Source: a virus
Taxonomy: Duplodnaviria > Caudoviricetes
Strand: one strand, 5' to 3'
Length of the DNA stretch: 53,999 nt
Virus record (IMG/VR): IMGVR_UViG_3300034061_004173
Coordinates: 1-53,999 of that record
Notes under the pieces: generated by a model
What the model saw: the letters and a program-made list of their open reading frames with translations, nothing else
Told to the model about the DNA's origin: nothing
Database searches by the model: none
Shown: positions 8,952-53,999 of the stretch, in pieces
Layout of the letters: each line of letters starts with the position of its first letter
How positions within the stretch are numbered: the stretch's first letter is position 1
Program-made: the position numbers and the translations under genes

Positions 8952-8956
8952 AAAAT

Positions 8957-13960: not shown

Positions 13961-13961
13961 A

Positions 13962-16942: not shown

Positions 16943-16945
16943 AAA

Positions 16946-18529: not shown

Positions 18530-18533
18530 AATT

Positions 18534-18809
18534 ATGTTACAGAAAACAGTTGAAAGAAAAAAATATTACAAAGATTTAGGCGGGGAAAACAATGTGGTTT
18601 TGGAAGATTTAAGAGTTTTAAAGCACTCACAAATTCCAAATGCCTATTTTGTTCACGTTAAATATTTGATAGGAGATGGTGGTATATATAATAACTACGA
18701 AGTCTTGGAGAGTTTAGATGAAAATGGAGAGTGGATTGATATGAAAAAAGACCTGACTAAATTAGAATATGGTGCTTTTTTAAAGGATTGCGAGGTTAGC
18801 AATTTTTAA
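18534..18809 (+). CDS. Hypothetical protein
   Basis: ORF in operon. Confidence 0.6.
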   Translation: MLQKTVERKKYYKDLGGENNVVLEDLRVLKHSQIPNAYFVHVKYLIGDGGIYNNYEVLESLDENGEWIDMKKDLTKLEYGAFLKDCEVSNF

Positions 18810-18826
18810 TTTAATATTTTTGTAAA

Positions 18827-19894: not shown

Positions 19895-19915
19895 AATAAA
19901 TTAAAGATTAAAGAT

Positions 19916-22900: not shown

Positions 22901-25900
22901 ATGTCAAGCGGAGAATTGTTTATGGACGGTGGGGCTATGGCTCAAAACCAACAATTAATTGATGGTGCTTCTCAATCTTATGCAAATTACTATTTGACTA
23001 ATGATGGTATAAGTCAGGCTTCTTTCAAAAAAGGTGGTGTAATTAAAAATCAATACAAAGACAGAACGGATAAAGATATTTGGAATAGTTTTTCTATTAC
23101 ACAAAGACAACATTTTTTAAAAGACCATTTTGAAGAAATTCAGACAGTTGCAACAAATAGTGGTGTAAACAACATTAACCATTTTGGAAACCTTATTGGT
23201 TGGGCTAATAGAGATTATGAAGACTTACCAACATATATTAAATCCCCATTTAATTACCATACAGAAAGTGGTCAATACGCAAGTGGTGGAGTTATGGAAA
23301 AAAACCAACAAGTAATTGATGATGCATCTCAATCATATATTAACTACTATTTGGGCGAGGGCGCAAGTCAAGGTATTTATAAAGACGGTGGTTCTTTATA
23401 TGATAAGGCAACAAAAAGTCAATATTTAGAAAAATACTCTAAAAATGGTAATTTAGTAAGAACTGCGGAACAATTTGATAGTGGTAGTTGGGTTGTAAGC
23501 GTTTATAGTGGTATTGACATTTCAGGAGAGTATTCAAATGAAGAGTTTAACAAAAGAATAAAAAAATATTTTAGTAATTACGAAAATGGTGGTTCTATTC
23601 CGAATAATTACGAGGGAAGAACTCCTGCAAATATTTGGAAAATTTGGACAGAAGAGCAAAGAGAACAATTTTTAATTGACCATTTGATTACAGATAGAAA
23701 TTTAAACAAAAGTACAGAAGATTTTTTAATTCAGTTTAAATATTATCCATATTCAAATTTACCACCATTAGCAAAAACTAAATTAAGATACCATATTCAA
23801 AATGGTCAATACGCAAAAGGTGGTTCTATTCCTAACAATTACGAGGGTAGAACTCCTGAAGATGTTTGGAATAATTGGACTTCCGAACAAAAGACACATT
23901 TTATGCAAGACCATAAATATAACATTTTTGGCGACAGACAAATATCTAAAGAAGATAGAGAAAAATTTCTTATGACTAAATTTAAGGATTTATCAAGAGA
24001 TTTAAGAATTATAGTAGAAGACCACGTTCAAGAGGGTCAATACGCTTATGGTGGAAAGACTAAAAGCAGACCATCTATGAGAGAACTTTATATTGAGCAA
24101 ATTGCTTATTTAACAAATACAAGAGAAGTGGGAGTTGATGCTTTTGCTAAAGAGCATAATCTAACTGATTCAGAATTATCCAATTTAATGTCAGGTCTTG
24201 GTAGAAAAATGATAAGCCAAAGCGACTTTATTACTGCTTTAGTAGGAAATAAAAACAACCCTAAACAAAAAGAAGTTATTGCTTTTGCAAAATCTGATAA
24301 AGCATATAAAATGGCTGACGGTGGAGATTTAGGTTACTTTGACAATATGAGTGAAGAAGAAATCTTTAAGTCAACTGTTGTTTTTGACAACAACGGGAAG
24401 TCTTACGATAGATATACTGTTTTCACTCCTGACGACTCTGTTTTTGGAATGAGCGAAGACGCAAAAGGTTTTAATCTGTACATTGGCGATAAAAGTGAAA
24501 TTCCTATGGGGAAACATTTAGGTAAAAAACTTACTTCTGTTCCTCAAGGAATAAGAATGGCGGTGCTTAATAGAATGAAAGAAGAATATGCTGACGGCGG
24601 TGCATTAAAATTCAAAGTAGGTCAAGGAGAAAAATACTTTGATAAAAAAGAAAAAATGCAACTATCAATAGGAAAAGAAAGTGATATTCCTAATGTGTAT
24701 AATGTAATTTGGGAAGACGGAGAACATTCTATTTATTCTGCTGACAACATTAATTTCTTTATAAGTAAAGGGATTTGGAAAAAATTAGATAAAATGGCTG
24801 ACGGTGGCGGAATTCGTTCTAAAGAAGAATTGAAAAAAATATTTTCTGAAAAAGAAGCGATAGTTAAAAATCTTACTCCAAAACAAATTGCTGAAATGTG
24901 GAACGAAAACAGTTTTGGCGTAAAAGAGGGTATAAGTAAACCAATTACTATTGAAGAGGCAAAAAGACCGAGTATGAAAATTTATTTGGAAAACTTGCTT
25001 ATTGAAAACGAGTTAACTGAAGATGAACAGGCTCAATATTTTGCTAAAGGCGGATTTGTTGCAACAGTTGAATTTAACGTAGGGGATATAGTTTGGGATA
25101 AAGGAAATAAAACTTACGGAACTGTTATGAATAATTTCGGCGACCCTATTAATGGAGATGGCGGAGAATTAAGATTGGATTCGGACGGTATGCAAGTAAT
25201 TTTCTTATACGACAAGAGTTACGAAAACAGAATAGGCTATAATCTTGTAAAATTAGGAGATAAAGGCGATACAGGAAAATTTACCCCCGTTGTACTTGAT
25301 GAACTAAAAGCAAGTGCTGAAAGAATGATTAAGTATAGAAGAGATGCAAAAGACAAAGAGGGAGTTAAGATTTATCAAGAAATATACAAAAGAACTCTTG
25401 ACGGAGAATTCGATTCTATGGTGGGTCGTGCTAAAGCGACTACTTCTAACAAAAAAGGTTCAGTCGATTATACTTATGTTCCTAATAAAGATGTTAAGGA
25501 ATTGAGCGTTGTAGTTAAAGGCGAATTAAAGAAATTAATGGGTTCTGATATACTTGACGGGGTTTACGTTAAAAATTCAGCGAAATCTACTGCAAAAGTA
25601 GATGTTAATGCCGTGTTCGCTAAAATTCTTAAAGATGCTAAAGAGGCAAAAAGCGGAAAGACGAAAATGTTTACCGCTACTGATTTAAAGAAATTAAATC
25701 TTGAAATGGTTCAAAAACTTGTAGAGGCAGGTTATACCGAACAACAAATAAGAAATATTATTTTTGGATATGCTTTTGATAACGAAATTGTGGCTGACAA
25801 CGAACTTGAATACGATAAGGGTATTTTCTCTTACGAAGACACTTATGTTAAAAGTAAAATAGAGGGTTTAGTCGAGGCTCAAAAAAATAAAGAGTTTGCG

Positions 25901-28426: not shown

Positions 28427-31400
28427 TTTACAATTACTATGAAGTTATTTAATAAAACAATAGACAGACAATTATTCAAACAATATTCACTTGGTAGCGA
28501 CCTCTCTAAACAAGAGGTTGTTGTCAAGATTTTCAATCCGACAGGCGCAGGAAATTGGTTCATATTAAACTCTGACCCTGAAGACCCTGATTACCTTTGG
28601 GCTATTGTTGATTTAGGATATGGTGCTGAAGTAGGTTCAGTAAGCCGTAACGACCTTGAAACTTATAGAGGAAGATTTGGATTAGGTTTTGAACGTGATT
28701 TAGGGTTTGACCCTATAAACGCAGAAGAACTTTATCAAGGACTTCGTAACGGGGAATACTATGCTGACGGTGGAGAAATTGAAGTTGTTTATGAGCGTTC
28801 GGTAGGTTCAAAAAAACCAATTAAATTGCTTCTTTTGAATAAAGGTAAAGAGCAAAAAGGATATACTTTTAGTGGCAAAGACCAAGTTGCGGTTCTTGAA
28901 AATTACAATCGTAATAAGCAAGAGGATTTAGAAAGACTTTGGAACTTAAAAGGTTACGAAACTAAATATGCTGATGGCGGGGAAGTATCTTCTCGTTTAT
29001 CAAATAATTTTCTTATTGTGAAAATAAAAGGTAAGACATATAAAACGTGGTTTCCTAATTGGTTATCTATAAATAAAAATTTCCTTGAAAAACTTAATAA
29101 AGAAAACAAAAGTGTTTTAATTGTAGAAGAAGAAAATGGAAATAGTAAACAGTTTGAAGTTCCAAATAGAGATTTAATGGATATTTGGCTAAATGATAAA
29201 TCTGATAAAAAAACAAGAGATGTTTTGATTCAAAAAGCAATAGAGTATAATAATAATTCTTTTGCTGACGGTGGGAGTTTTGATGAAAATATAGAATTTA
29301 AAGATGTTTCTGATGAATATGGAGAAAAATATGAAGTTTTTGTAAATGGAATTTTACAAGGAAATATATCCAAATCTGATGATAAATATTTTGTAAATAG
29401 CGCATCAACAAGAGGAGGCAAATCATATCCAAGTAAGTTTTTTGAATCAAAAGATAAGGCAAAAAAATATATTTATTCTAAAACTAAAGAATTATATGGG
29501 ATAGGCTCTGTTAAAAAACTAATGGGTTATGCTAAAGGCGGAAACATCGCTGATTTTACCGACAATCAACAAATGATTATGAATCAAAATGTTGAGTTAG
29601 AACATCATCACGAGGAATTGGAAGATATTTTAGAAGATAAAGTACCTGTTCCTGCTTGGGTAGTTGCAAAAATGGAAACTGCAACGCAAAACCTTTCAGA
29701 CATTACTCACTACCTTGACGGGCAAAAAGAAATAATGGAAGACCAATTAGAAGAAGATGATGACGATGACGATGATGAAGAAATGGAAACCGAAGAAATT
29801 GAAAACAAAGAAGTTGTCGAACCAATAGTTGTTACTGCGGGAGATAAAACAGAAATTACAAAAAACTTTACAGACGATGCTTGGGATAACTTGAGAGGGT
29901 TCTTGAAAGGAATGGAGGGTATTGACTTACGAGATGACTATACGTTTGATTACAAGGACGAACAGTATGAAGTTGAGCCAATCATTAACTCTGACGAAAA
30001 TGGGGTTTCAAATGCCGTGTTTACGATTTTTGACGGGGACGGAGAAGAAGTAGGAGATATTTCTTATATCCGTGAGGGTGGAAAACAAAAGTTTAATGCT
30101 AACTCGGAATTCTTTAGTTGGAATAATGCGAAGTTTGAAGACGGTGGTTTTATGAATAATGTTTATGCTGACGGGGGATATTTTGATGGTGCAATTCCAA
30201 AAACTTCAAGTTATATGAATACTTATGCTGATGGTGGTAATACCGCAATAGACAACTTAAATAAAAATACAGAATTAAGAGAAAAGATGATTTCTTATAT
30301 TGTGAATATGAAATCCACAAGTCGAATGTCTGATAGACAATATGATGCTTTAGAAAAAAGAATTTCCGAAAAGTCATTTGCTCAATTAAAAAAAGAATAC
30401 GATGCTTTAAAAGGAAATAGTTCTTACGATAAAGGCGGAAGTTTAAGTGAAAAAGAACAAATATTGGAAGCATTAGAAAGTTATGATTCTTTTAATAATG
30501 AATTTGAAGAAGACCAACAATTTTTCGTTACTGATGATTTATTAGGTTTCATTAGAAGTTTAAAAGTTTCTGATAAAGAATCAATTGTTGAAGCGTTATC
30601 TGACTACGATGGAGATGATTTTGTAGTGACATCGCCTTTATTGTCTTTTGTTGAAAATATTAATGTTAGTGGTAATTACGCCAAAGGTGGAAGTTTAGGA
30701 ACTGTAAATCCAAAATACAAAAATTCAATTTTAAGTATGATTAACTATAAAATCGACAAGCGTATTGGAGATTCTATGTCTGATATATCATATACAGAGG
30801 CTTTGAATTTAAAAAACAAAATAAATAAAGACGAGCCTATTTCAAGCAAAGAAAAAAATTATATATCTGAAATGGCTTCTTATTTAAGTTCAAAAAGATT
30901 ACTTGATAAGGTGGCTAATATTTCATATACTGAAAGTTTCGATTTCTTTGATAATATAGTTTCAATGGCTAAAGGCGGAATGGTTGTTACATCTGTAAAA
31001 GATATACCAAATTTCAAAGAAAGACTTAAACAAGGTAGAATTACTTATCGTGGGTTAGGTATGGGAAAATTGGCTAATGATTTTTATAAATTAGCAGGTA
31101 CTTCAGGAACAAGAATTAAAGTTGACAAAAAAGAATATTTTATAACAGACGAAGAGTTTGATATGTTCTCAAGAGATTCTGACGGGAAAATGATTATAAA
31201 ATTTGAAGCACCTGCAAGAAAAGGCTATGCTGATGGTGGTTTTATGAATGGTGTTTATGAAGACGGTGGTTTTCTTGACAAATACGAAGTTGATAGATTC
31301 AAACAAGTTATGAATGGTAAAGCAATCGCAAAATACATTGTAAGATTGCAAGATTCATTCGGAAATAAAGAAACTTATGTTTTTGGAATTAAATTAAAAG

Positions 31401-32068
31401 ACCAATTTAAAGGTTGTGAGTTAGTTCCATACGAAGTTCTTTATGGAAGTTGGTCTGATTCAGGAACTCCTTTTGCTTTAAGTAATTTACAAGTTAAAAG
31501 ATTAGTTCCAAATAGTTTTTCTAATATTGAATTAGACGAACAGGAAACAGAAATGCTTGTGAATAAATTAGTAAATAAAAATCAAGCAGGTGTTGAGAAA
31601 TTTTTAAACTCTCAATTCTTCTATTTAAACTACAATCAAACATTTAAAGATGTTTTAAGAGGACACCTTGCTCTTTCTATTGCAAGAGTTTCAAGTATTG
31701 AATTTGAAATCGTACAAAAATTTGCTGACGGTGGTCAGGTTAGAAGTTTTGATGGCATTTTTGGTAAAGAAATAATTTTCAAAGAAGAACAAGTTGGAAA
31801 ATTTACAATAGGAATTAGTAGTGGGTTTAATAACAGAAGACACGTCTTTATATATGAGGGAGAAGTAGGAAGATATGGTGGAAAAGGATTGCCAAAAGAT
31901 TTTAATATGTCGCCACAACTTTCTGCTGAATTCGCTGATAACTTTTATTCTAATTTAAAACGAAAAGTTGAAAACAATCAAGATTTAACACCTTTTGAAT
32001 TAATAAAAGAAGTAAAGTTTTTGTTTGCTGACGGTGGTTTTATGAATGACGTTTACGCTAAAGGCGGT
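26543..32068 (+). repeat. Dispersed 30-bp coding unit GGFMN[NDG]VYxxGG, 8 copies across two genes
   Basis: Copies near 26543, 26828, 27227 (x2 tandem), 27860, 30134, 31226, 32024; third codon positions vary. Confidence 0.9.
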
Positions 32069-33307
32069 TCTATAAAAAAAGATTGGTGGCAAACTGTTGT
32101 CAATCCAAATGAGGATTTCCATAATTACGACAACAGAAAACCTATTGATTGGGAAGTTGATGATTTTAAAGAATGGGTTGTAAGCAATTCAGATTTAGAC
32201 GGTAACGTAGATAAAGAGGTTTTAGATGTTATAAAAATGCCTAAAAGCAAATTAACTGTTGAGTACTTAAATAAAAACGGAAGTGGTAAAAACAATAACG
32301 AATACTATAAAGAATTTGGAAATTGGCAATCTGCTTTGTATGATATTTTTACTCAAATGAAAAAAGACTATTTGTTTAAAAAATCAAGAAAATATATTCT
32401 TAAAGCAGATATAAAAACCGTTACAGTTAAACGTAAAGGTAAAGAACTTACTTATAATGCCTCTGACGTTTTAAATGGTGCTTATGTACTTGCTAAAGGT
32501 GGGGATATGACTTCCAAAGCAAACTATGTTGGTAAAAATGATGTTGTTGAAGTTGAGTTGAAAGATGGAAGCAAAGTTAAACCTGCTAACGGGTATTGGA
32601 TTAAGAAAGGTGCTGAACCTATTGGGGCAGAACCAACGCCTACTACTTCAGGAAAATCAGAGCCTAAAGTTGGACAAACTTATATCAGAAAAGATATGAG
32701 AGGTAATTGGAAAGCAGAAACTAACGTTGATAATTTTAATGATTACGATTGGAGAGTTTCTACAATTAAAACTTATAGCGGTAAATTGATTTCTTCTGCT
32801 CAAGGTGGAAAAACTGAACTAACAGGTAGTAAAGGTATTGTAATGTTTAAGTACACTATGTACGAAGACCCAAACTATACTTTAGAAGTTTCACAACCAA
32901 GTCGTTTAACTGAAAAGGTTGTTACTGAACAACACGAAAAAGCGTTGGCTAAATTCAAAAAGTTTATGGAAACAGGAATGTTCAAAGGTGGAGGTAAAAT
33001 TTCAAACTTTGACAAACTTTCTGCTAAAGTAGCAAAACAGTACGAGGGAAAACCTGTAAAGAGCCAATACCAAGAAGAGTATGGTAAATTCTACTCAAAA
33101 GAAGAAGCCCAAGAGGTTGGCGACAAAGTTGCAGGAAAAGTAAAAGCAATGCAACCTGCTAAAAAAGAAATGGGTGGCGAAACTAAAAAAATGAGTAATG
33201 GTCGTGAAATGCTAATAAAAGCAAATCAATTGGCTAAAGAAATTCGTAAGGACGGGGAAAGTTGGAATGACGCTAAAAAAAGAGCATTTGCACAATTAAA
33301 AAAGTAA
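28439..33307 (+). CDS. 1622-aa putative polyprotein: N-terminal DUF2958-like domain and about 17 xxxGG-delimited segments
   Basis: VVKIFNPTGAGNWF..VDLGYGAEVGSVS..ERDLGF; YADGG/FADGG/YAKGG/MAKGG/FEDGG repeats. Confidence 0.8.
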   Translation: MKLFNKTIDRQLFKQYSLGSDLSKQEVVVKIFNPTGAGNWFILNSDPEDPDYLWAIVDLGYGAEVGSVSRNDLETYRGRFGLGFERDLGFDPINAEELYQGLRNGEYYADGGEIEVVYERSVGSKKPIKLLLLNKGKEQKGYTFSGKDQVAVLENYNRNKQEDLERLWNLKGYETKYADGGEVSSRLSNNFLIVKIKGKTYKTWFPNWLSINKNFLEKLNKENKSVLIVEEENGNSKQFEVPNRDLMDIWLNDKSDKKTRDVLIQKAIEYNNNSFADGGSFDENIEFKDVSDEYGEKYEVFVNGILQGNISKSDDKYFVNSASTRGGKSYPSKFFESKDKAKKYIYSKTKELYGIGSVKKLMGYAKGGNIADFTDNQQMIMNQNVELEHHHEELEDILEDKVPVPAWVVAKMETATQNLSDITHYLDGQKEIMEDQLEEDDDDDDDEEMETEEIENKEVVEPIVVTAGDKTEITKNFTDDAWDNLRGFLKGMEGIDLRDDYTFDYKDEQYEVEPIINSDENGVSNAVFTIFDGDGEEVGDISYIREGGKQKFNANSEFFSWNNAKFEDGGFMNNVYADGGYFDGAIPKTSSYMNTYADGGNTAIDNLNKNTELREKMISYIVNMKSTSRMSDRQYDALEKRISEKSFAQLKKEYDALKGNSSYDKGGSLSEKEQILEALESYDSFNNEFEEDQQFFVTDDLLGFIRSLKVSDKESIVEALSDYDGDDFVVTSPLLSFVENINVSGNYAKGGSLGTVNPKYKNSILSMINYKIDKRIGDSMSDISYTEALNLKNKINKDEPISSKEKNYISEMASYLSSKRLLDKVANISYTESFDFFDNIVSMAKGGMVVTSVKDIPNFKERLKQGRITYRGLGMGKLANDFYKLAGTSGTRIKVDKKEYFITDEEFDMFSRDSDGKMIIKFEAPARKGYADGGFMNGVYEDGGFLDKYEVDRFKQVMNGKAIAKYIVRLQDSFGNKETYVFGIKLKDQFKGCELVPYEVLYGSWSDSGTPFALSNLQVKRLVPNSFSNIELDEQETEMLVNKLVNKNQAGVEKFLNSQFFYLNYNQTFKDVLRGHLALSIARVSSIEFEIVQKFADGGQVRSFDGIFGKEIIFKEEQVGKFTIGISSGFNNRRHVFIYEGEVGRYGGKGLPKDFNMSPQLSAEFADNFYSNLKRKVENNQDLTPFELIKEVKFLFADGGFMNDVYAKGGSIKKDWWQTVVNPNEDFHNYDNRKPIDWEVDDFKEWVVSNSDLDGNVDKEVLDVIKMPKSKLTVEYLNKNGSGKNNNEYYKEFGNWQSALYDIFTQMKKDYLFKKSRKYILKADIKTVTVKRKGKELTYNASDVLNGAYVLAKGGDMTSKANYVGKNDVVEVELKDGSKVKPANGYWIKKGAEPIGAEPTPTTSGKSEPKVGQTYIRKDMRGNWKAETNVDNFNDYDWRVSTIKTYSGKLISSAQGGKTELTGSKGIVMFKYTMYEDPNYTLEVSQPSRLTEKVVTEQHEKALAKFKKFMETGMFKGGGKISNFDKLSAKVAKQYEGKPVKSQYQEEYGKFYSKEEAQEVGDKVAGKVKAMQPAKKEMGGETKKMSNGREMLIKANQLAKEIRKDGESWNDAKKRAFAQLKK

Positions 33308-35474: not shown

Positions 35475-35600
35475 ATGAATAAAGGTTATATTATTGCAGG
35501 GATAGTTGTTATAGGTGCTATTGTTTTTATTTGGAATAGCACACCTAAAAAAAACAAAGATGGCTTTTATAGTGCAAGTGGTTGTGGTTGTGGAGAATAA
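35475..35600 (+). CDS. 41-aa TM peptide, paralog of the 49719/50006/50390 family (not in ORF track)
   Basis: MNKGYIIAGIVVIGAIVFIWNSTPKKNKDGFYSASGCGCGE. Confidence 0.65.
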   Translation: MNKGYIIAGIVVIGAIVFIWNSTPKKNKDGFYSASGCGCGE

Positions 35601-43964: not shown

Positions 43965-44432
43965 ATGAAATTATCAGAACATTTAGACTTGTCAGAAGTT
44001 ACTCGTAGCGATATGGCAAAAAGAAGAGGGTTAAGCAATATGCCTACTCCTGAACACATTGAAAACTTTAAAATTTTGGCAGAAAATATTTTTGAGCCAA
44101 TTCGTAAACATTTTGGCGTACCAATATTTGTGTCGTCAGGGTACAGAAGCAAGGCTCTTAATACTGCTATTGGCGGGAGTTTGACAAGCCAACATTGCTT
44201 GGGTCAAGCCCTTGACCTTGATATGGACGGAACTAAAAATGGTGTAACAAATAAAATGGTTTTTGATTACATCAAAGCAAATTTAAACTACGACCAATTA
44301 ATTTGGGAATTTGGAACTAAAGACAATCCTGATTGGGTACACGTTTCTTATAATCCAAAAGGTAAGCAACGTAAACAAACTTTACGAGCAATTAAATCAG
44401 GTGGAAAAACCGCATATCAACCTTATGCCTAA
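43965..44432 (+). CDS. Peptidase M15 endolysin
   Basis: SSGYRS..N..IGG..SQHCLGQALD..WVHVS. Confidence 0.9.
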   Translation: MKLSEHLDLSEVTRSDMAKRRGLSNMPTPEHIENFKILAENIFEPIRKHFGVPIFVSSGYRSKALNTAIGGSLTSQHCLGQALDLDMDGTKNGVTNKMVFDYIKANLNYDQLIWEFGTKDNPDWVHVSYNPKGKQRKQTLRAIKSGGKTAYQPYA

Positions 44433-45472: not shown

Positions 45473-46174
45473 ATGTCAAACGTAAGAAGATATTTAAGTA
45501 ATGCACGTCAGAGTGCAATGGAATCTTTCTCAAATGCAGACGGATTTATCGACCAAGACTTGTCGTTCACAGGAGATGATTTCTTCAGAGCAGACGGTGG
45601 AATGTCAATGGGTGGAGATATTCAAACATCTCAACCATATATTATCAACGTGACTTCTACATCAGGGTCAGCAGTTGCTAATTTTGACGTATTAGGTTCA
45701 TACCAATACATCAACAACGCAGGTTTCCAAACAAATGGAAATTTAGTTATCGGTTCTATAACAATTAGTTCAGGAATCCCTAACATTAACTACCAAGAGA
45801 TGTTGTATCAATTTATGAACAACCCATATTCTGTTGGTTTAACTTACATTCAATCGGCTACTGCTAACCAAGTGTTACAAACATTAGCGGTTAACACGAG
45901 AGATGCGAATGGTAACTTGGCGCAAAAAACATTAGTGCCAACAATTGACCCATATCAGTTACAGACTACAATTATCGCAATGAAGTATGCTTACAGAATT
46001 GATGGTTTCACAAAAATCACAATTGCTCAAGTGTTAGCAAACGCTACTGTATCGTTATACTTCTACCCTGCTGATAACATCAACCTTGCGAGAGCATTAG
46101 GTGGACAACCTGTAAGCAGACAATTCGGAACGCCTCCTGTAACTAATGGTCAAACTATTAAGTTAAGAGCGTAA
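45473..46174 (+). CDS. Candidate major capsid protein (beta-rich, single jelly-roll sized) with an N-terminal leader ending in FSNADG/FFRADGG
   Basis: Alternating beta-strand pattern; low charge; C-ending codons (ttc, aac, atc, tac) enriched as in highly expressed genes; own promoter and terminator; close to the packaging ATPase. Confidence 0.55.
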   Translation: MSNVRRYLSNARQSAMESFSNADGFIDQDLSFTGDDFFRADGGMSMGGDIQTSQPYIINVTSTSGSAVANFDVLGSYQYINNAGFQTNGNLVIGSITISSGIPNINYQEMLYQFMNNPYSVGLTYIQSATANQVLQTLAVNTRDANGNLAQKTLVPTIDPYQLQTTIIAMKYAYRIDGFTKITIAQVLANATVSLYFYPADNINLARALGGQPVSRQFGTPPVTNGQTIKLRA

Positions 46175-46212
46175 CTATCAGAAATGATATAACGAATTAA
46201 TGTATAATTTAG

Positions 46213-46250
46213 AAAGAGAGCAAGTGATTCATTTCTACTTGCTCTTTTTT
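46213..46250 (+). terminator. Intrinsic terminator after the capsid candidate
   Basis: AGAGCAAGT..ACTTGCTCT followed by a T-tract. Confidence 0.8.
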
Positions 46251-46268
46251 GCTTAAAAAATAAAAATT

Positions 46269-46694
46269 ATGAACGTATTCAAATATGTTGCAGAGTCTAA
46301 TCCGAATGGTGCGGTGCAAATAATCAATTCATTTGGTTATGATGTTACAAGCAATTCTGATTTAGGCAAGAGTTTGAGTGAGTTAGTAGCCGAAGTGGGA
46401 GAACCTGCTTTTAAGAAAGTTATAGACAACCACCCCGACAAAGATGTTATTTTAGAATTATACGCAAGTGAAAATACTAAAGATAAAGATAAAGAATGTG
46501 ATTGTGATAGTTGCAGAAGTAAAAGAATGATAAATGACCATTTACAATATCTTAATGTAACAGGTAGTGGTAAATTTGCTGATGAAAAATCATCAAATTC
46601 TTCAACAAACACTCATTTATTAGCAAATCAAACAAACGTTATTTTAGTAGTTTCTGCTTTGTTCATAGCGACTGCATTAATCTTAAAAAAATAA
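46269..46694 (+). CDS. C-terminal TM protein with a Cys cluster
   Basis: CDCDSC; YLNVTG; ILVVSALFIATALILKK. Confidence 0.65.
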   Translation: MNVFKYVAESNPNGAVQIINSFGYDVTSNSDLGKSLSELVAEVGEPAFKKVIDNHPDKDVILELYASENTKDKDKECDCDSCRSKRMINDHLQYLNVTGSGKFADEKSSNSSTNTHLLANQTNVILVVSALFIATALILKK

Positions 46695-46697
46695 AAA

Positions 46698-47420
46698 ATG
46701 GAAAATAAAATCAAACCAAGTATTCAGACAGGAGCAATGACTTTAGTATTGCTTGTTCAAAATTATAGAAGTCAAATGATTGCTTTGTTGTTGAAAAATG
46801 GTGTTACTGTTAAAAGCGGTGCTTCAAATCAACAAATTGCTCTAATTATGGCTAATCTTTTAAAGATTTCAAAATCTTTTTCAAGAGATTTACAAATGTT
46901 TATTCAAAATCCAAAAGTTGTTGAAGTTCTTGCAGGTGGTCTTATTCAAAATACTGAATATTTTAGAGCAAGTGGATTCGCAGATAAAAATAACGATAAC
47001 TCTAAATACTTTAGAGCAGATGGCTTTATGAATTATCAAGGAAGTAGATACGGCTTTGAAGATGTTTCTTTTAAACCCGATGATTCTGAAACTGAAACTT
47101 CAGGAACACCACCAAAAGCATCATTTTGGTCAGGATTAAACTTTGCTGATTTACTTAACAAAGGTTTACAAACTTTTGGTAATATAGACAAGAATAAAAC
47201 TGACAGAGCAATTGCAAATGCACAAGCACAAGTAGGCGCAAATGTAGGAGCGTTTAATGTAGGTTCAGGTTCAGGTTCAGGTTCAGGTTCAGGTTCAGGT
47301 TCAGGAGATAATGATGGCGATGGCGATGGAATTAGTACTACTACAATTGTTGTATTAAGTTTAGTAGGTGTTGCAGTAATAGGAACTATCATATATTTTG
47401 TAACAAGACCTAAAACCTAA
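46698..47420 (+). CDS. C-terminal TM protein with YFRASG/YFRADG motifs and a (GS)7 linker
   Basis: ggttca x7 at 47262-47303; IVVLSLVGVAVIGTIIYFV. Confidence 0.7.
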   Translation: MENKIKPSIQTGAMTLVLLVQNYRSQMIALLLKNGVTVKSGASNQQIALIMANLLKISKSFSRDLQMFIQNPKVVEVLAGGLIQNTEYFRASGFADKNNDNSKYFRADGFMNYQGSRYGFEDVSFKPDDSETETSGTPPKASFWSGLNFADLLNKGLQTFGNIDKNKTDRAIANAQAQVGANVGAFNVGSGSGSGSGSGSGSGDNDGDGDGISTTTIVVLSLVGVAVIGTIIYFVTRPKT

Positions 47421-47432
47421 AAAAAATTAGTT

Positions 47433-47660
47433 ATGGTTATTGATGAACAAATGTTATCAAATATAATTGGGAGTTCTGTTGGAATTTACCCAAATGACGT
47501 AGCAAATATGCTTGTAAAAAATAATGTACTTGCACCCGCTCCCGAATACACGCTTGACCAATTGGTAGAGGGTGTTTTTGTCGGTTTAAATCAAAATCCA
47601 AGTTTTGCTCAAGAATATGCTTCTTGGTTAGAACAAATCGTAACCACATTAACTTTTTAA
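47433..47660 (+). CDS. Small helical protein similar to the N-terminus of 46698
   Basis: MLVKNNV..NPSFAQEY versus LLLKNGV..SKSFSRDL. Confidence 0.6.
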   Translation: MVIDEQMLSNIIGSSVGIYPNDVANMLVKNNVLAPAPEYTLDQLVEGVFVGLNQNPSFAQEYASWLEQIVTTLTF

Positions 47661-47671
47661 ATAAATAAGAT

Positions 47672-47977
47672 ATGAGTTGGGATATTGGAGGAATAGTAAA
47701 AGCAATTGCACCTGCCGTTGTAGGTTTAGGAGCAAGTTTGGTTATGAATAATCAAGCAGTTAAAAACGCTCAAGGACAGGCAAATGCTCAACAAGAAGCA
47801 CTTAATGCGCAGTATGCAATTGCGCAACAAAACGCAAAGAACATTGAGTTGATGAAACAATTGGGGAAAGAACCCCCTAAAGAAAAAAGCAAATTACCTC
47901 TTTACATAGGTTTAGGTGTTGGTGGGGTTTTAGTAGTTGGTGTTATAATTTTTGCGGTTACAAGAAATAAATCTTAA
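47672..47977 (+). CDS. Membrane protein (A/Q-rich helix, C-terminal TM)
   Basis: LYIGLGVGGVLVVGVIIFAV. Confidence 0.65.
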   Translation: MSWDIGGIVKAIAPAVVGLGASLVMNNQAVKNAQGQANAQQEALNAQYAIAQQNAKNIELMKQLGKEPPKEKSKLPLYIGLGVGGVLVVGVIIFAVTRNKS

Positions 47978-47988
47978 TAATTTTAAAT

Positions 47989-48201
47989 ATGGATTTTTTA
48001 GCACAAGCAAAAGATATTGCAAGTAAAGACAAAAGAGAAGTTCTTATGATAACTACAAAAGCATCTGTAAATGGTGCGGTTACAGGACTTGTTTTAGGAC
48101 TTATGCTTGGTTATTGGAAAAACAAAAACATTTACATTACAGGTCTTGTCGGTGCGGTAATCGGCGGAGTTGCAACAAGTATAATAGTTAATAAAAAGTA
48201 A
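47989..48201 (+). CDS. Glycine-zipper two-TM protein
   Basis: GAVTGLVLGLMLG; GLVGAVIGG. Confidence 0.65.
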   Translation: MDFLAQAKDIASKDKREVLMITTKASVNGAVTGLVLGLMLGYWKNKNIYITGLVGAVIGGVATSIIVNKK

Positions 48202-48202
48202 G

Positions 48203-48745
48203 ATGAAAAAATCAAACTTAATAATTGGAATTGGAATTATATCTTTAGGCGTAATAGGTTTTTTTATTTTTAAAAACAAGAAAAAACAAGGTAGCGAAAT
48301 TGAAACAGATGAAGAAGTAGCATTTGAAAGTGCTGATGGAAAAACATCAAAAAGCACAACAATTAAACCTACAAAAATCGTAAAAATAAAAGATTATCAA
48401 AATTTATTATTAAATACGAATGTTGAAAAACTAAAAAAAGATTTAATTGGTAAAAATATTTATACTTTTATTCCAAATGTTATAGTTAGAAATAAGCCTT
48501 ACGTTGATGATATTGGTATCTTTAATTCAAAAAGGTTTAAAATAAAAAATAAAGGAAGTTTTATTGGTCAAGTTGCTGACGTAATGTTAGAAAAAAATGG
48601 CACAAAGTATTTTTTAGCAATAAGCGAAAAAAATTACAATAAAAATTTAGATGGATATTTATTTCCATTTTTTAACCCTCGAAATAGACCAACAAAATAT
48701 AAAAATTGGGTAAGAACTACTGATGTAGTTGTAGATACGAACTAA
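48203..48745 (+). CDS. N-terminal TM protein with an FESADG motif
   Basis: LIIGIGIISLGVIGFFIF. Confidence 0.65.
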   Translation: MKKSNLIIGIGIISLGVIGFFIFKNKKKQGSEIETDEEVAFESADGKTSKSTTIKPTKIVKIKDYQNLLLNTNVEKLKKDLIGKNIYTFIPNVIVRNKPYVDDIGIFNSKRFKIKNKGSFIGQVADVMLEKNGTKYFLAISEKNYNKNLDGYLFPFFNPRNRPTKYKNWVRTTDVVVDTN

Positions 48746-48762
48746 TAAAAAATAAAATAGTT

Positions 48763-49569
48763 ATGGATTCAGCAAAATTATTAATAATAGGAGGAGTAGC
48801 ATTAGGAGGTTTTTACCTTTTTAATAAAAGCAAAAAAGATAGAGAAAATTCTCAAATATTAGTGTTACAAAACACTCAACCGCAAACTGCAACACTATCA
48901 CAGTTAGAGTTAGAAAGCAAACCTAACGGTAAAGAAATTGTTACTCCAAAAGAAGCAACAGTTTATGCTACAAAAACGATAGCAGAAGTTAATTCTCTTA
49001 TGGTTAAATATCCGCTACTTACAAAGCAAGAGTTTGTGGATAATTATAATAGTTCATACAAAACGGATTTAATTATTGATACTGACGGAAATATAGTTGC
49101 GAAAAAATCAACGGTTTCTCCGCCAATAATTCAAGGTAATGGACTTCAAGGTTTAGTAAATCAATTAGTGATAATAAGAACATTAGATGGCACGGCTTCA
49201 AACGTTAATAACACATTTAAAGGTCAGCAAATGATATATGCTCGTTGGAAATCAGACTTTTCTACTGTTTATAGTGATTTGAAAAATTATTATTCTACTT
49301 TAACAAAAGAACAAGCAGATTTTATAATAAAATATTTGCCAAAAATGATTATTAAAGCATTTATGGGAGATAATGACCCAAGAGTAAGGGCTAATGATTT
49401 TTATTCTCAAGAAGAAATTATTGATTTCATTGATAATAGTTTTGTAAAAGACGAAGATAAACTTTTAGAGTTTGCTTTAGGTAATTTCTTTAGGAATTAT
49501 CAAATGTCAATTGGGGCATATTCAGGAATTAAGACCGCTATTGGTACAAAAACGCCTATATATAATTAA
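48763..49569 (+). CDS. N-terminal TM hypothetical protein
   Basis: LLIIGGVALGGFYLF. Confidence 0.65.
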   Translation: MDSAKLLIIGGVALGGFYLFNKSKKDRENSQILVLQNTQPQTATLSQLELESKPNGKEIVTPKEATVYATKTIAEVNSLMVKYPLLTKQEFVDNYNSSYKTDLIIDTDGNIVAKKSTVSPPIIQGNGLQGLVNQLVIIRTLDGTASNVNNTFKGQQMIYARWKSDFSTVYSDLKNYYSTLTKEQADFIIKYLPKMIIKAFMGDNDPRVRANDFYSQEEIIDFIDNSFVKDEDKLLEFALGNFFRNYQMSIGAYSGIKTAIGTKTPIYN

Positions 49570-49582
49570 AAATTAAAAAAAA

Positions 49583-49693
49583 ATGAAAAAACCAAATATT
49601 TTATTAGCAGTAGTAGGATTAGTAGTTTCTCTTGGAGTAGTTTATGGATATACCTACATTATTGGAAAGTCTTGGAAAGCAAGTCAAAAATAA
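49583..49693 (+). CDS. 36-aa TM peptide (not in ORF track)
   Basis: MKKPNILLAVVGLVVSLGVVYGYTYIIGKSWKASQK; paralog of 50618. Confidence 0.6.
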   Translation: MKKPNILLAVVGLVVSLGVVYGYTYIIGKSWKASQK

Positions 49694-49718
49694 TTAACAA
49701 TTAAAATCAAAAAAAAAG

Positions 49719-49961
49719 ATGAAAAAAGAGTATATTGTTGGCGGTTTAGCAATAGTAGGTGCAATTGCATTGATTACCTATTATAATAAGCCAAAAAGAA
49801 ATTCAGAGGGATTTTTTGGAGCAAGTGGTAAAGTAACGAGTATAGGTCAAGCCCCAAAAGGAAATTGTGCTTGGTGTAAAGATAGTGAGGGAGTAACCTA
49901 TCATACAGGGAAAGGCAGAAGTTGTGATAGTGGCGACAGATGTATTACACGATACGCATAA
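49719..49961 (+). CDS. TM-anchor family member with a Cys-rich tail
   Basis: YIVGGLAIVGAIAL..RNSEGFFGASG. Confidence 0.65.
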   Translation: MKKEYIVGGLAIVGAIALITYYNKPKRNSEGFFGASGKVTSIGQAPKGNCAWCKDSEGVTYHTGKGRSCDSGDRCITRYA

Positions 49962-50005
49962 TTTATTTTAAATTAAAAAAAGTATTAATATTAAAATTTA
50001 AAACA

Positions 50006-50377
50006 ATGCAAAAAAAGTATATCATCGGAGGTTTAGCAGTAGTAGGTGCAATTGCATTATTTACTTATTTAAAACCTAAAAAGAAACTAAATTCAGATGG
50101 TTTTTATGGTGCGCACGGAGTAAGTAGTTTTCCAAACTTAACAACAAATCCATTTGTACCAAGTTCTTTTACAAGACAAGATAGATTTTGTAAAGTTTGT
50201 GTGCAGTATGATAAAAAACCATCGCCTAAAGGGGGATTTTTATATATGAAAAGTCTTTACAACCCAAATAATCAAATTAACGAATTATTTAGCATAACGG
50301 AACAAGAGTTTACAATGGCATTTACTAAAAATGGATTTTGTGGGAAAACTCCACCAAAACAAAACATTTATAAATAA
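50006..50377 (+). CDS. TM-anchor family member; true start is probably ATG 50006
   Basis: YIIGGLAVVGAIAL..LNSDGFYGAHG. Confidence 0.65.
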   Translation: MQKKYIIGGLAVVGAIALFTYLKPKKKLNSDGFYGAHGVSSFPNLTTNPFVPSSFTRQDRFCKVCVQYDKKPSPKGGFLYMKSLYNPNNQINELFSITEQEFTMAFTKNGFCGKTPPKQNIYK

Positions 50378-50389
50378 ACAATTAAAAAA

Positions 50390-50578
50390 ATGGAAAAGAA
50401 GTATATCATTGGAGGTTTAGCAATCGTAGGAGCAATTGCGTTATTTATGTATTTAAAACCTAAAAAGAAACGTAATTCAGAGGGTTTTTACGGAGCAGAT
50501 GGTGGAAAAAAATATGCAACTATCGGTAGTGATGATGGTCGAACTGCACCTCCAAGAAGTATGGGAGGAAGAGGTTAA
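50390..50578 (+). CDS. TM-anchor family member
   Basis: YIIGGLAIVGAIAL..RNSEGFYGADGG. Confidence 0.65.
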   Translation: MEKKYIIGGLAIVGAIALFMYLKPKKKRNSEGFYGADGGKKYATIGSDDGRTAPPRSMGGRG

Positions 50579-50617
50579 ACATAAAAAAAAAATACTAACA
50601 ATTAAAATTTTATAAAG

Positions 50618-50752
50618 ATGGGAACATTTTATGATGAAAAAGACAATTCAATAACAACAAGTAACTTGGTGTACATTGGAGTATCAGCATTGGCTCTTTT
50701 TGGAGTAGTTTACCTTGTAGGTCGTGCTTGGAAAAAAAGTCAAACTGCGTAA
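50618..50752 (+). CDS. 44-aa TM peptide (not in ORF track)
   Basis: ..LVYIGVSALALFGVVYLVGRAWKKSQTA. Confidence 0.6.
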   Translation: MGTFYDEKDNSITTSNLVYIGVSALALFGVVYLVGRAWKKSQTA

Positions 50753-50781
50753 TTATATTAAGAACGCAAAAAAAAAAATTT

Positions 50782-51042
50782 ATGAATAAGAATACGATGT
50801 TATATGGATTATTAGTTGCGGGTGGATTACTTGCTTACTATGCTTGGAAAAAAAACAAAGCAAATACTGAAAAAACGATGACAAGTCCAACTTCAACATC
50901 GGGTACTTTTGTAGATGATGTTAGTGTTTTAGAAATTGGTACAGGAGGTATTAAACCACCAAGACCTATTTTAAAAAGCCAAATCGTTGAGCCTTTAATT
51001 GCAGAAAATAAAAAATTAGATTTATCAGGTCAATTAATGTAA
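50782..51042 (+). CDS. N-terminal TM protein; true start is probably ATG 50782
   Basis: MNKNTMLYGLLVAGGLLAYYAWKK. Confidence 0.6.
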   Translation: MNKNTMLYGLLVAGGLLAYYAWKKNKANTEKTMTSPTSTSGTFVDDVSVLEIGTGGIKPPRPILKSQIVEPLIAENKKLDLSGQLM

Positions 51043-51061
51043 TCTTAAAAAACAATAACTT

Positions 51062-51214
51062 ATGAACACTAAAAAAATCATAGGAATAGTAATATTAGGG
51101 GCTTCGGTAGGATTATTAGTTTATATCTACAAAGGCTTCTTACAACCAAGAATGGAAGTTGATGCCGAAATAAAAAGCGGTAAAACTTCTCCAACAACAA
51201 CAACAACAAAATAA
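51062..51214 (+). CDS. 50-aa TM peptide (not in ORF track)
   Basis: MNTKKIIGIVILGASVGLLVYIYKG.. Confidence 0.6.
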   Translation: MNTKKIIGIVILGASVGLLVYIYKGFLQPRMEVDAEIKSGKTSPTTTTTK

Positions 51215-51217
51215 ATT

Positions 51218-51553
51218 ATGGAAACAAAACAGAAAAGTCCAAATAGGCTTTGGCGAGAAAGCGGAACTTCTTTAAGTTTTGCAGATTGGATTCAGAGAGA
51301 AAAGGATAAGGGTGCTTTTTTAGCAAATAAAAAATTTGATAATTTTTCAAATGTAAATGGTTTTATAGATAATGATACTTGGATTGAACAACTTAAAAGT
51401 CAAGCAAGAATAAATTTAGGCATTGACAAAGTTGTTTCTGACAAAAAGAAGAAAAATAATACTTTTGTAGGTTTGAATAAAAATATTTTGATTTTATCAG
51501 GAATAATTATTATTGGGGCAATAGGCTATAAAATTTATCAAAATAGAAAGTAA
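51218..51553 (+). CDS. C-terminal TM protein with an FSNVNG motif
   Basis: ILILSGIIIIGAIGYKIY. Confidence 0.65.
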   Translation: METKQKSPNRLWRESGTSLSFADWIQREKDKGAFLANKKFDNFSNVNGFIDNDTWIEQLKSQARINLGIDKVVSDKKKKNNTFVGLNKNILILSGIIIIGAIGYKIYQNRK

Positions 51554-51554
51554 T

Positions 51555-52340
51555 ATGAACTTAAGGTTAGATACAAGATACGAAGAAATGTGCTTGGTGG
51601 TAAAAGTAGCAGTTACAATGCCTACCAAAGTCAGAATTAAAATTTTTGACGAACAGAAACCAAAAATCGTTTTTACAGATAGATACAAAACTGTTACTTC
51701 TGACTATACTTTTTATGTTCGTATGCCAATTACGTCAAAAAGCATTATAATTTCCGTCTATGATGATAAAAAGGGAAATACTCCTCAATCAGAAGACAAA
51801 AATATTAAAGTTGTTTCGGTGGATAAAACACCTTTGCAAAAGAGAATTGACGTAGTTGATATTCACAACCCTACTATTGCTTATTTTGTTGATTTCGCAC
51901 AAAGATTTTGTTATAACGCACCATATTTAGAGGCAAATAAATCATACCAATCGGATAACGGTGGTTTTATGATTGAGTATTTACCAACAATAATTGATGC
52001 AAAAGGAAAAGAACTTACAACACCTGCAAGAATATCAAGGATTTCAGGTCGTATTCAGGTTTCAAAAAAACAATTTGACCGATACACAGTACCTATGAGA
52101 TTTGCAATTCTTTGTCACGAATTTAGTCACTTCTACGTTAATGAAGATATGACTGACGAAAGTGAAGCAGATATGAATGGATTATTGATTTATTTAGGAC
52201 TTGGTTATCCTCGAATAGAGGCTTTTGAAGCATTTTTAGAAGTTTTTGAGCATTACCCAAGCCAAGAGAATAAAAGACGTTACGATAAGATTAAAAACTT
52301 TATCGACAACTTTGAAAAAGATAATATAGTATTTAGATAA
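51555..52340 (+). CDS. Zincin (HExxH) metallopeptidase-like protein with a beta-rich N-domain
   Basis: FAILCHEFSHF..ESEAD. Confidence 0.7.
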   Translation: MNLRLDTRYEEMCLVVKVAVTMPTKVRIKIFDEQKPKIVFTDRYKTVTSDYTFYVRMPITSKSIIISVYDDKKGNTPQSEDKNIKVVSVDKTPLQKRIDVVDIHNPTIAYFVDFAQRFCYNAPYLEANKSYQSDNGGFMIEYLPTIIDAKGKELTTPARISRISGRIQVSKKQFDRYTVPMRFAILCHEFSHFYVNEDMTDESEADMNGLLIYLGLGYPRIEAFEAFLEVFEHYPSQENKRRYDKIKNFIDNFEKDNIVFR

Positions 52341-52353
52341 AAAAAATATAGGT

Positions 52354-53331
52354 ATGGAAAATTATAAAAATTTGGTTTTACAAAATGAAATTGATAATGC
52401 ACAAATGATACGACCAATTAGTAAAGATGGGATTTCTATTATAGACACATATCCTTTGGACGTTATTGAAAGATTAGGTAAATATCAATTTATTTTTGAT
52501 TATTCTGCCAATAGTTCTACTTCTTCATACAATATGAATAATTGGGTTAATTTTTCAAAAGGAGATGTAGTTGAAGTGGTTAGTTTTCAACTTGGAAGTG
52601 CTATGATTAATAACCCAAATTATAAAGAATACGCACCAATAAATAATACTGCTCCAAAAACAGGTTTCTTTTCAGGAATAAATTTTGGAGAACTAGTAAA
52701 AGGGTTAAATGGTGGAAATAGAAAAGAATTAGAAATACCTAAAGAATACTTGCAAAAAGTTGATGATTCTACTTCAGTAACAATTCCAACGGGTGTTAAT
52801 TTTGGTGCTAATCCAAAACCACAACCTATTAGTATTAAGCCAATTGGGATAGGAAGAGAACCAAGTTCAGATGTAATACTTGAAGAAAACGCAACTTTTT
52901 CATTAGTAAAGCCTTTTACTTATTTAACATCTTATACAAAAGGAAGACCTCTTTACGAGTTAGGTGGTGCGGGTATGCTTCAATATGAACAAACACCAAA
53001 TTACGAAACCATTCCTGCGGGAACTAAAGTGACGGGAAGATTATTTAAAAGTATTGCTAATCAAAAGGTAATTAGTGCTATTTCAGGAGTAAGCAATTCA
53101 ATGATTCGACCTACTGTAATTGAAAAAGATTTTCTTGCGGTAAAAGGCTACGGTTCGACAGGCTCAATTAATATTCCATCAGAGTATTTAACGAGAGAAA
53201 TTACTACCAATACAAACAATAATAACGGTAATGTTGTTCCCGTAGCAAATGACAACAAAAATTTATTGATGATTGTAGGTGCTTTTTTAGTAGGGTATGT
53301 ATTATTCAGTAAAGAAACACCATCAACTTAA
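52354..53331 (+). CDS. Protein with duplicated beta domains and a C-terminal TM anchor
   Basis: LEIPKEYL / INIPSEYL; NKNLLMIVGAFLVGYVLF, similar to the 37150/37867 anchor. Confidence 0.65.
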   Translation: MENYKNLVLQNEIDNAQMIRPISKDGISIIDTYPLDVIERLGKYQFIFDYSANSSTSSYNMNNWVNFSKGDVVEVVSFQLGSAMINNPNYKEYAPINNTAPKTGFFSGINFGELVKGLNGGNRKELEIPKEYLQKVDDSTSVTIPTGVNFGANPKPQPISIKPIGIGREPSSDVILEENATFSLVKPFTYLTSYTKGRPLYELGGAGMLQYEQTPNYETIPAGTKVTGRLFKSIANQKVISAISGVSNSMIRPTVIEKDFLAVKGYGSTGSINIPSEYLTREITTNTNNNNGNVVPVANDNKNLLMIVGAFLVGYVLFSKETPST

Positions 53332-53340
53332 AAAGAAATT

Positions 53341-53999
53341 ATGGCAAATTCAATTAATATAAATAAAGCATTATTACTTGTTCATTTCAATAATTTAATT
53401 CTTGGGGAATTAAGAAGAAATGGAATAAACAGTTGGATAGCAGGTGGGGCATTAAGAGATTATTTCTTGAGCAAACCACTAAAATCTGACTGCGATATTT
53501 TCTTTCCAAATCTTTCTGAATTTAATAAAGCAAAAGATTATTTTATGTCAAAAGGGGCTAAAATAATTTGGGAAAGTGAAAACGGAATGAAAATTACATA
53601 CAAGGGTAAGACTTTTGATTTGATAAAAATATTTAATTCAAGTCCTATTGCTACTATAAGCCGTTTTGATTTTACGATTTCTATGTTGGCTACTGACGGA
53701 AAAGACGTTTTTATGGGCGATAAAACGCTTAAAGACTTACAAGACAGAAAATTAGTAATTAACACTATTGTTAATCCTTTAAGTACTCTAAAAAGAGTTT
53801 TAAAGCATTACAAAAAAGGATTTACTATGTCTGCTGAAGAAACAAAAAAACTATATGGTTTTTTAAATAATTTGCCTTATGATGAGTCAGACGATTTATT
53901 AAGTGCAAATGGAAGTTCAGGAGAGGGTTTTACTCCAAATTATTCAGTTACAAAAGATTTGACTGTAATTGAAGAAAAACCTGATTATTTAAGATATGC
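53341..53999 (+). CDS. CCA-adding / poly(A) polymerase-like nucleotidyltransferase, 3'-truncated (not in ORF track)
   Basis: WIAGGALRDYFL..SDCDIF; SRFDFTISMLA; frame open to the window end (..EKPDYLRY). Confidence 0.8.
   Translation, partial: MANSININKALLLVHFNNLILGELRRNGINSWIAGGALRDYFLSKPLKSDCDIFFPNLSEFNKAKDYFMSKGAKIIWESENGMKITYKGKTFDLIKIFNSSPIATISRFDFTISMLATDGKDVFMGDKTLKDLQDRKLVINTIVNPLSTLKRVLKHYKKGFTMSAEETKKLYGFLNNLPYDESDDLLSANGSSGEGFTPNYSVTKDLTVIEEKPDYLRY

Follow-up and report, generated by a model that had tools for sequence, protein, structure and literature searches.

The sequence considered here, hereafter the window, is the complete 53,999-base record IMGVR_UViG_3300034061_004173, which is classed as linear and has a CheckV completeness estimate of 77%. 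Its GC content is ~31%, and every long open reading frame (ORF) lies on the plus strand, as do all of the features described below. The region from 33 to 54 kb encodes ~45 ORFs, mostly small, ~23 of which have one or two hydrophobic anchors according to a simple hydropathy scan. Within this region, a capsid (coat) candidate of 233 residues, encoded at 45473..46174, and a series of unrelated membrane-anchored proteins share a six-residue motif that the original prediction, made from the window's letters, had written as [FY]-x-x-[AV]-[DSN]-G. This element is a short linear motif: it lies in disordered or linker segments, it is kept in orthologs while its flanks drift at 7 of 10 sites (column counts in ortholog alignments), and it recurs in unrelated proteins more often than chance would give.

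The coat candidate consists of an N-terminal helix (residues 2-16), a disordered leader (~17-50) and a jelly-roll core (56-217). Its AlphaFold2 model has a mean predicted local distance difference test score (pLDDT) of 87.6, drops under 50 in two stretches (residues 18-35 and 37-40) and forms a beta-sandwich over residues 56-217. The best Foldseek matches in the PDB were single jelly-roll capsid proteins (the cowpea mosaic virus small subunit, picornavirus VP3 and satellite tobacco mosaic virus), all weak at E >= 1.2e-3 and TM <= 0.40, and other matches, equally weak and within the same bounds, were to C1q/TNF-like or CBM-like sandwiches; a search of a viral structure library gave no firmer match. 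Protein 45473 is the likely coat protein, putatively of the single jelly-roll type. The family is large, counting 1936 homologs (E <= 1e-3) when sequences are clustered at 90% identity and 542 clusters when the cut-off is 50%, and tblastn of the candidate against cultured-phage records returned no match. The leader is hypervariable and acidic. It carries two copies of the motif, FSNADG at residues 19-24 (site 1, 45527..45544) and FFRADG at residues 37-42 followed by G43 (site 2, 45581..45598), both within the low-confidence segment at residues 18-40.

Downstream of the coat gene, YLNVTG (46548..46565) stands in protein 46269, 17 residues before a C-terminal anchor, and protein 46698 carries two copies, YFRASG (site 1, 46959..46976) and YFRADG (site 2, 47007..47024), the second running on into FMN as in the polyproteins discussed below. 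FESADG (48323..48340) lies 18 residues past the N-terminal anchor of protein 48203, and FSNVNG (51344..51361) in protein 51218 is the weakest site of the set. Four further carriers form a small-anchor family: the small membrane protein 49719 with FFGASG (49812..49829), its paralog 50006 (ORF 49940-50377) with FYGAHG (50102..50119), the small membrane protein 50390, also a paralog of 50006, with FYGADG and then a second G (50486..50503), and the 41-residue ORF 35475 with FYSASG (35565..35582). These proteins are built on the module anchor-KPKK-NS[ED]GF[FY]-x-[A/V/M]-x-G, after which a variable C-terminal part follows. Finally, LLSANG (53896..53913) in the nucleotidyltransferase-like protein 53341 (phrog_4400, E = 7e-20) is a borderline case that lacks the aromatic residue, and the form LL[SN]A[NR]G is present in 6/6 orthologs.

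The original prediction had listed 12 strings in the capsid candidate and about nine other proteins. All 12 are present in the ORFs named, but only nine fit the written pattern, and these nine sit in seven proteins (two each in 45473 and 46698, one each in 48203, 49719, 50390, 51218 and 35475); YLNVTG has T and FYGAHG has H before the final G, the latter conforming to the family consensus if not to the pattern, and LLSANG lacks an aromatic one. The choice of pattern was made with the window in view. Across the 18 proteins encoded at 45-54 kb (2,691 residues), the pattern matches 8 times against a shuffle mean of 0.41, and 8 matches were reached in 0 of 300 shuffles; when the three paralogs are merged, the motif is present in 5 of 17 groups against 0.46, and 5 was reached in 0 of 2000 shuffles. 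For each of the seven A[DS]G tripeptides encoded at 45-54 kb, the third residue ahead of the A is F or Y. Enrichment is seen neither at 33-45 kb (1 match vs 0.46) nor at 0-6 kb (1 vs 0.19). Among the 11 window sites, ADG is present in 5 and a second G follows in 2; across relatives, the residue before G is D, S, N, T, E or G. Codons differ between motif instances (TTC/TTT, GAC/GAT, GGA/GGT/GGC), from which we conclude that the repeat is selected as protein and not as DNA, and a DNA-level repeat was ruled out on this ground.

The motif can be followed through 35 related loci, with coat proteins that share 60-99% identity with that of the window. Over the coat gene and up to ~10.7 kb downstream of it, there are 120 instances of the strict pattern where 15.4 would be expected (shuffle maximum 23), compared with 16 instances against 11.2 in the 10 kb upstream, so that enrichment in these loci is restricted to the capsid-side gene block. 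Conservation in capsid homologs, which had been put forward as a check, was borne out: both leader sites are kept in 32/32 distinct locus orthologs (for site 2, by its aromatic residue, A and G), and site 1 fits the strict pattern in 120/120 close homologs. At site 2, only 32 of these 120 fit the strict pattern and the remaining 88 carry E, G, A or T before the G, which shows that [DSN] at this position is too narrow. In protein 46269, the aromatic residue, A/V/M/I and G are kept in 28/31 orthologs, with 0.76 identity in motif columns vs 0.16 in the flanks, and at site 1 of 46698 the three positions are kept in 17/22 orthologs, with 0.80 vs 0.23. Within the small-anchor family, the sites of 49719, 50390 and 35475 are kept in 11/11, 9/9 and 7/8 relatives, respectively, the first as part of the anchor-KPKK-NS[ED]GF module. 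The consensus from the relatives reads [N/S]-E-[G/N]-[FY]-x-[N/G/S/R]-[A/V/M]-x-G, the first three positions being often present. Flank positions that the search pattern leaves free agree between capsid and non-capsid instances: E stands at -7 in 31% of either set, and N or S is found at -8.

Beyond these loci, we collected 116 distant coat leaders, each the representative of a cluster at 50% identity, which cannot be aligned with one another. ADG is nonetheless their most enriched 3-mer (56 vs 5.1, 11-fold), and the top 4-mers are NADG (18 vs 0.6) and SADG (15 vs 0.4). The strict motif is present in 42/116 leaders against 2.2 in shuffles, and by a relaxed pattern 69/116 have 1-4 copies. Median positions are residue 24 for the G of the first copy, just past the N-terminal helix, and, for the last copy, 14 residues ahead of the core, which starts with a conserved SQPY.

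These data bear directly on the possibility that the motif has no common partner, being instead a turn of a favoured type (Asx/Ser-Gly following a small residue) that arises repeatedly by local duplication, linker recombination and shared composition. FSNADGFIDQD of the capsid candidate and FSNVNGFIDND of 51218 do resemble a shared segment, the small-anchor proteins are paralogs, and three sites are not conserved. Moreover, in a blind reduced-alphabet search of the window, aromatic-aromatic-x-A-x-G ranked third among four-position patterns, not first; together with the post hoc choice of the pattern, this rank makes the window alone suggestive but not decisive. We nevertheless consider such an origin improbable, as in unrelated families the flanks have drifted much further than the motif columns, as ADG is enriched in leaders that are unalignable and come from clusters at <=50% identity, and as the enrichment is specific to one gene block.

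Three specific identities for the motif were rejected on its composition and spacing. The calcium loop of EF-hands, DxDxDG, has Asp at position 1 and an acidic residue at position 12; in the motif, an aromatic residue occupies the position of the first Asp, and downstream acidic residues are not at fixed positions. Nodavirus and picornavirus coat proteins undergo an Asn-dependent self-cleavage; here Asn is absent from 8/11 window sites. Sortase and rhombosortase signals directly abut a C-terminal anchor with a basic tail, and both these and signal-peptidase-type signals were ruled out by spacing, the motif lying 17-110 residues from C-terminal anchors and occurring also after N-terminal anchors.

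The motif had been said often to sit between a membrane anchor or leader and the payload, and this holds for the nine motif proteins with a hydrophobic anchor. In 46269, 46698 and 51218 it stands between the N-terminal part and a C-terminal anchor, and in 48203, 49719, 50006, 50390 and 35475 an N-terminal anchor and a stretch of basic residues come before it; overall, it is found 10-110 residues from the anchor, on either side. A conserved linker peptide common to unrelated particle proteins implies one reader, and probably a single partner does read the motif. That partner might be a host factor, namely a protease, a chaperone or the membrane-insertion machinery, rather than a viral protein. 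Most carriers are membrane proteins and must use host insertion machinery, and the assignment of a viral protease, described next, is weak; on the other side, the enrichment is seen in this viral block and not in the 10 kb upstream of it, and the distances to anchors are unlike those of signal-peptidase or sortase-type signals. A host reader seems to us a very unlikely explanation.

The candidate viral reader is protein 51555, a protein of 261 residues (51555..52340) with an HExxH sequence, HEFSH, encoded at 52116-52130. HExxH is present in 25/25 distinct orthologs, and residues H188, E189, H192, E202 and E204 do not vary. In 29/29 loci with >4.7 kb of sequence past the coat gene, a homolog is found 3.2-8.1 kb downstream of that gene; the six loci lacking a match have <=2.3 kb downstream of the coat gene. 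In the AlphaFold2 model (pLDDT 90.3), an N-terminal beta-sandwich (residues 1-93) is followed by a helix (106-124), a sheet (129-170), the HExxH helix (179-194) and a further helix from E202, an order of elements that we take to be the usual one for zincins. E202 and E204 stand on the helix after the HExxH helix, and either is a possible third metal ligand. The Foldseek matches of the model to M48-type peptidases include the putative Zn peptidase 3c37 (probability 0.99, E = 7e-3, TM 0.30/0.34) and BepA, 6sar (probability 0.96, E = 2.3e-2), both weak. Among 24 orthologs, sub-threshold Pfam matches were to SprT-like (6/24), M48 (2/24) and M56 (1/24) families, and the atlas leads fell below 0.9, namely DUF4344 at 0.84 and a cluster with 25% M48-carrying members at 0.82.

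A complex of the motif peptide with the 51555 protease had also been proposed as a check. When 51555 was folded with Zn and coat leader residues 1-60, the score was 0.35 (runs 0.45, 0.35 and 0.34) against 0.02 for the best of 3 controls, with >=46% contact agreement between runs and a partner pLDDT of >=45, a weak indication that moves the case by a small nudge; the run reported no interface. The mark for a complex is reached by 58/80 solved complexes and 2/110 mismatched pairs, and at scores <=0.60 it is reached by only 7 of the 80 solved complexes and by both of the passing mismatches. We infer that 51555, with its zincin-like model, would be an active protease and would bind the motif.

Taken together, the proposal of a common signal in the coat candidate and several unrelated membrane proteins stands, in that the motif is kept in orthologs, extends across a large family and is enriched only in this block; that it is cleaved is what we infer, and the link to the cargo polyproteins stands in part. 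Our preferred reading, to which we give a rough probability of 0.4, is that the motif is a shared processing signal cut by the zincin-like protease 51555. The signal, [FY]-x-[N/G/S/R]-[A/V/M]-x-G, occupies flexible linkers in the coat candidate and in five or more unrelated membrane-anchored proteins from the particle-building block, and it would be read by the conserved HExxH protein, which during particle maturation would cut at or beside it. On the coat candidate, the cut would remove the variable acidic leader and leave an arm of ~10-14 residues before the first strand; on the membrane proteins, it would free folded parts from their anchors. The same activity, or one like it, may also cut the [FY]-A-x-G-G sites of the giant polyvalent proteins.

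Several findings weigh against processing by 51555. Besides the third rank of the pattern in the blind search, three of the ten sites are poorly kept, namely site 2 of 46698 (3/22 orthologs), the three positions of 51218 (5/28) and the site of 48203 (5/12, in an uncertain alignment), and 47/116 distant leaders lack the motif even by the relaxed pattern. Many proteases are selective at the residues adjoining the cut, and here the residues on both sides of the invariant G vary. Small-anchor members in three relatives (L013:654-779, L012:192-320 and L002:14363-14488) end 1-5 residues past the motif, leaving nothing for a cut to release, which argues against a purely payload-releasing role. As for the enzyme, the window's copy of 51555 matches no Pfam family at E <= 0.1, its peptidase matches by Foldseek reach only E >= 7e-3 and TM <= 0.34, and a profile search of PDB sequences with the 51555 family found nothing relevant. 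Finally, a complex that passes in the weak range misleads more often than not, except where the pairing was already a probable one.

Some of these same features would be expected of the main rival to processing, an uncut docking signal, in which a small hairpin-like peptide plugs into one hub (a scaffold, or the jelly-roll shell on its inner side) and ties the internal membrane to the shell, the coat arm and the tails of the membrane proteins sharing a pocket. Leaders have 0-4 copies of the motif, and some have W-x-x-A-D arrays, as for multivalent binding; minimal anchor-plus-motif ORFs with nothing after the motif occur in relatives; the conserved positions are spread over six residues and not set beside one bond; and every motif partner except the coat protein is membrane-anchored. 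Set against docking are the leader itself, which in its hypervariability and acidity resembles a removable propeptide, the HExxH protein that accompanies the block in all 29 loci long enough to show it, and the weak complex signal, which points to the protease. On balance, we hold docking to be rather unlikely, and processing by 51555 remains the reading that we prefer.

Processing by 51555 would have parallels in several known systems. The adenovirus protease (AVP) cuts (M/I/L)-X-G-G↓X and (M/I/L)-X-G-X↓G sites on several virion precursors. The likeness extends to one short consensus on several unrelated particle proteins of a jelly-roll-type virus, a hydrophobic residue upstream with a terminal Gly, and two related consensus types. 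AVP sites differ in that the motif has an aromatic residue at -5 and Ala at -2, and in that the candidate enzyme here, for what would be a presumed cut, is an HExxH protein; clan CE proteases of the adenain type (PF00770) or Ulp1 type (PF02902) were found in 0/5 complete relatives at E <= 0.1, a search that did not include PF03290. Sites of the clan CE type, with G-G, G-x-G or A-G at the cut and a hydrophobic P4, do not describe the consensus, which reads aromatic(-5)-x-N-A(-2)-x-G(0). Vaccinia I7 cuts A-G↓X sites on core and membrane precursors and is thus alike in having a small-residue-Gly site common to both precursor classes. The analogy drawn originally with the poxvirus I7 site AG/X did not hold in detail, given that the motif has A-x-G, with A and G not adjacent, and given the result for adenain/Ulp1-type proteases just described.

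Among tailed phages, T4 has a capsid targeting sequence and gp21 sites (L/I-x-E), and phiKZ and SPN3US have prohead protease sites (S/A/G-x-E). These resemble the motif as short signals that many head proteins carry close to the N-terminus or within linkers; they are removed in maturation and also load cargo. They differ in belonging to tailed viruses with HK97-fold capsids, serine proteases and Glu at the cut, whereas here Phage_capsid (PF05065) and Terminase_6N (PF03237) were each found in 0/5 complete relatives (73-102 kb) and no Glu is fixed next to the G.

The original prediction also tied the motif to a set of cargo polyproteins through a shared A-D-G core. The block at 6195..33307 includes six polyvalent cargo-type proteins (6195, 7146, 7695, 8957, 19916 and 28439) that carry a related [FY]-A/E-x-G-G motif and in which the Pfam domains Zeta_toxin, ART-PolyVal, DUF5661 and DUF2958 are found. 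At 6-33 kb, [FYW]A[DENKQS]GG occurs 33 times against 0.11 expected, and the six proteins have 50 aromatic-x-x-GG sites; in 19916 these recur every ~80-120 residues, often as the tandem unit YADGGFMNxVYA[DK]GG. Where Pfam domains are known, such sites border them: ART-PolyVal of 7695 and DUF2958 of 28439 are each followed by sites, and Zeta_toxin of 6195 has them on either side. The sites look like domain boundaries or cleavage sites. The two motifs differ in register, the aromatic residue of the polyprotein motif standing directly before the A and the motif ending in GG, and that of the virion motif standing three residues before the A, with a single G. Bridging cases are FFRADGG, FYGADGG and YFRADGFMN (compare YADGGFMN). 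The claimed core accordingly survives in part: A-D-G-(G) and one following F-M-N are shared, but ADG is present at fewer than half of the window sites and the aromatic register differs. On their sequences, the two motifs appear related yet distinguishable.

Proteins of the polyvalent class have been proposed to be processed into units by a zincin metallopeptidase (MPTase) (Iyer et al. 2017, PMC5512222). The present case is similar in that the window encodes Zeta_toxin, ART-PolyVal, DUF2958 and DUF5661 polyvalent proteins. It differs in that the HExxH protein is the product of a separate 261-residue gene in the structural block and not a polyprotein domain, and the sections of that account considered here name no linker motif (PMC5512222). 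Three of the polyvalent proteins, 6195, 7146 and 7695, end in G-G-x(4-6)-[TN]PDYL[RK]MFL (window 7053-7142, 7602-7691 and 8862-8951, respectively). A similar string, KPDYLRY, is found at the window's end in the still-open frame of 53341 (53908-53997), and KPD[YN][LA]KY stands at or near the C-terminus of 5 orthologs. Endings of this PDYL type may constitute a shared C-terminal tag, perhaps a particle-loading signal.

Elsewhere in the structural block, lipid and cell-wall enzymes are encoded, comprising a GDSL lipase (33309-33989), an SLT transglycosylase (34752-35459), a CarboxypepD_reg-like domain with a C-terminal anchor (36710-37144), a PAP2 phosphatase (39993-40637) and an M15 peptidase (43965-44432); they fit a membrane-containing particle that has its own entry and exit enzymes. 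The block also encodes a P-loop ATPase with weak HerA-type matches, for which a PDB sequence search gave nothing useful. Just upstream of the ATPase, protein 41490, which is acidic, probably disordered and has a basic C-terminal tail, carries SFADLDG (41655-41672) and SFSQLDG (41721-41738); the second, within FNES[FY]SELDGKEK, is present in most of 32 orthologs. This aromatic-x-x-L-D-G variant was not counted as the motif, of which it may be a relative. Protein 13962, of 524 residues, contains a run of ~170 residues of low-complexity (G-Q-G-E)n repeats (window 14400-14900). The absence of PF05065 and PF03237 matches from the complete relatives fits a tailless virus without proving one, and the virus is an uncultured, bacterial and apparently tailless one.

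The relatives also illustrate variation within the jelly-roll family itself. A second jelly-roll paralog with a basic hydrophobic N-terminus and no motif-bearing leader is present at L018:6784-7437, L021:7724-8305 and L063:605-1267; L063 (a 17-kb fragment), L018_6784 and L021_7724 were considered as separate lineages and rejected as such, being leaderless paralogs within the same virus group. L030:9276-9977 is a tandem duplicate of the coat gene. In P0128 (397 residues) and P0165 (411 residues), two jelly-roll copies are fused in one chain, an arrangement that bears on the possible origin of double jelly-roll proteins. The representatives P0221 and P0259 have, in place of the leader, a twin-arginine-like start (RRxFLK and then a hydrophobic stretch), so the family may include secreted or cellular members.

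Tailed phages (T4, phiKZ), adenovirus, poxvirus and African swine fever virus are known to use shared codes for processing or loading, and we know of none for tailless, membrane-containing bacterial viruses; a literature search, which did not extend to supplementary files, found no description of the motif or of the virus group. In its widest form, the proposal would be that a bacterial, tailless, membrane-lined virus of 70-100 kb has an adenovirus-like maturation with a zinc protease, one enzyme recognizing a code of six residues that the coat arm and some six membrane proteins carry and, through [FY]-A-x-G-G, cutting polyvalent cargo into units in the particle before delivery; we regard this full scheme as distinctly unlikely. 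A direct bench test is available in the exposure of motif-carrying reporters to the 51555 protein. Throughout a very large family of coat proteins, a code this simple would make it easier to forecast the protein content of the particle and the positions of the mature termini.

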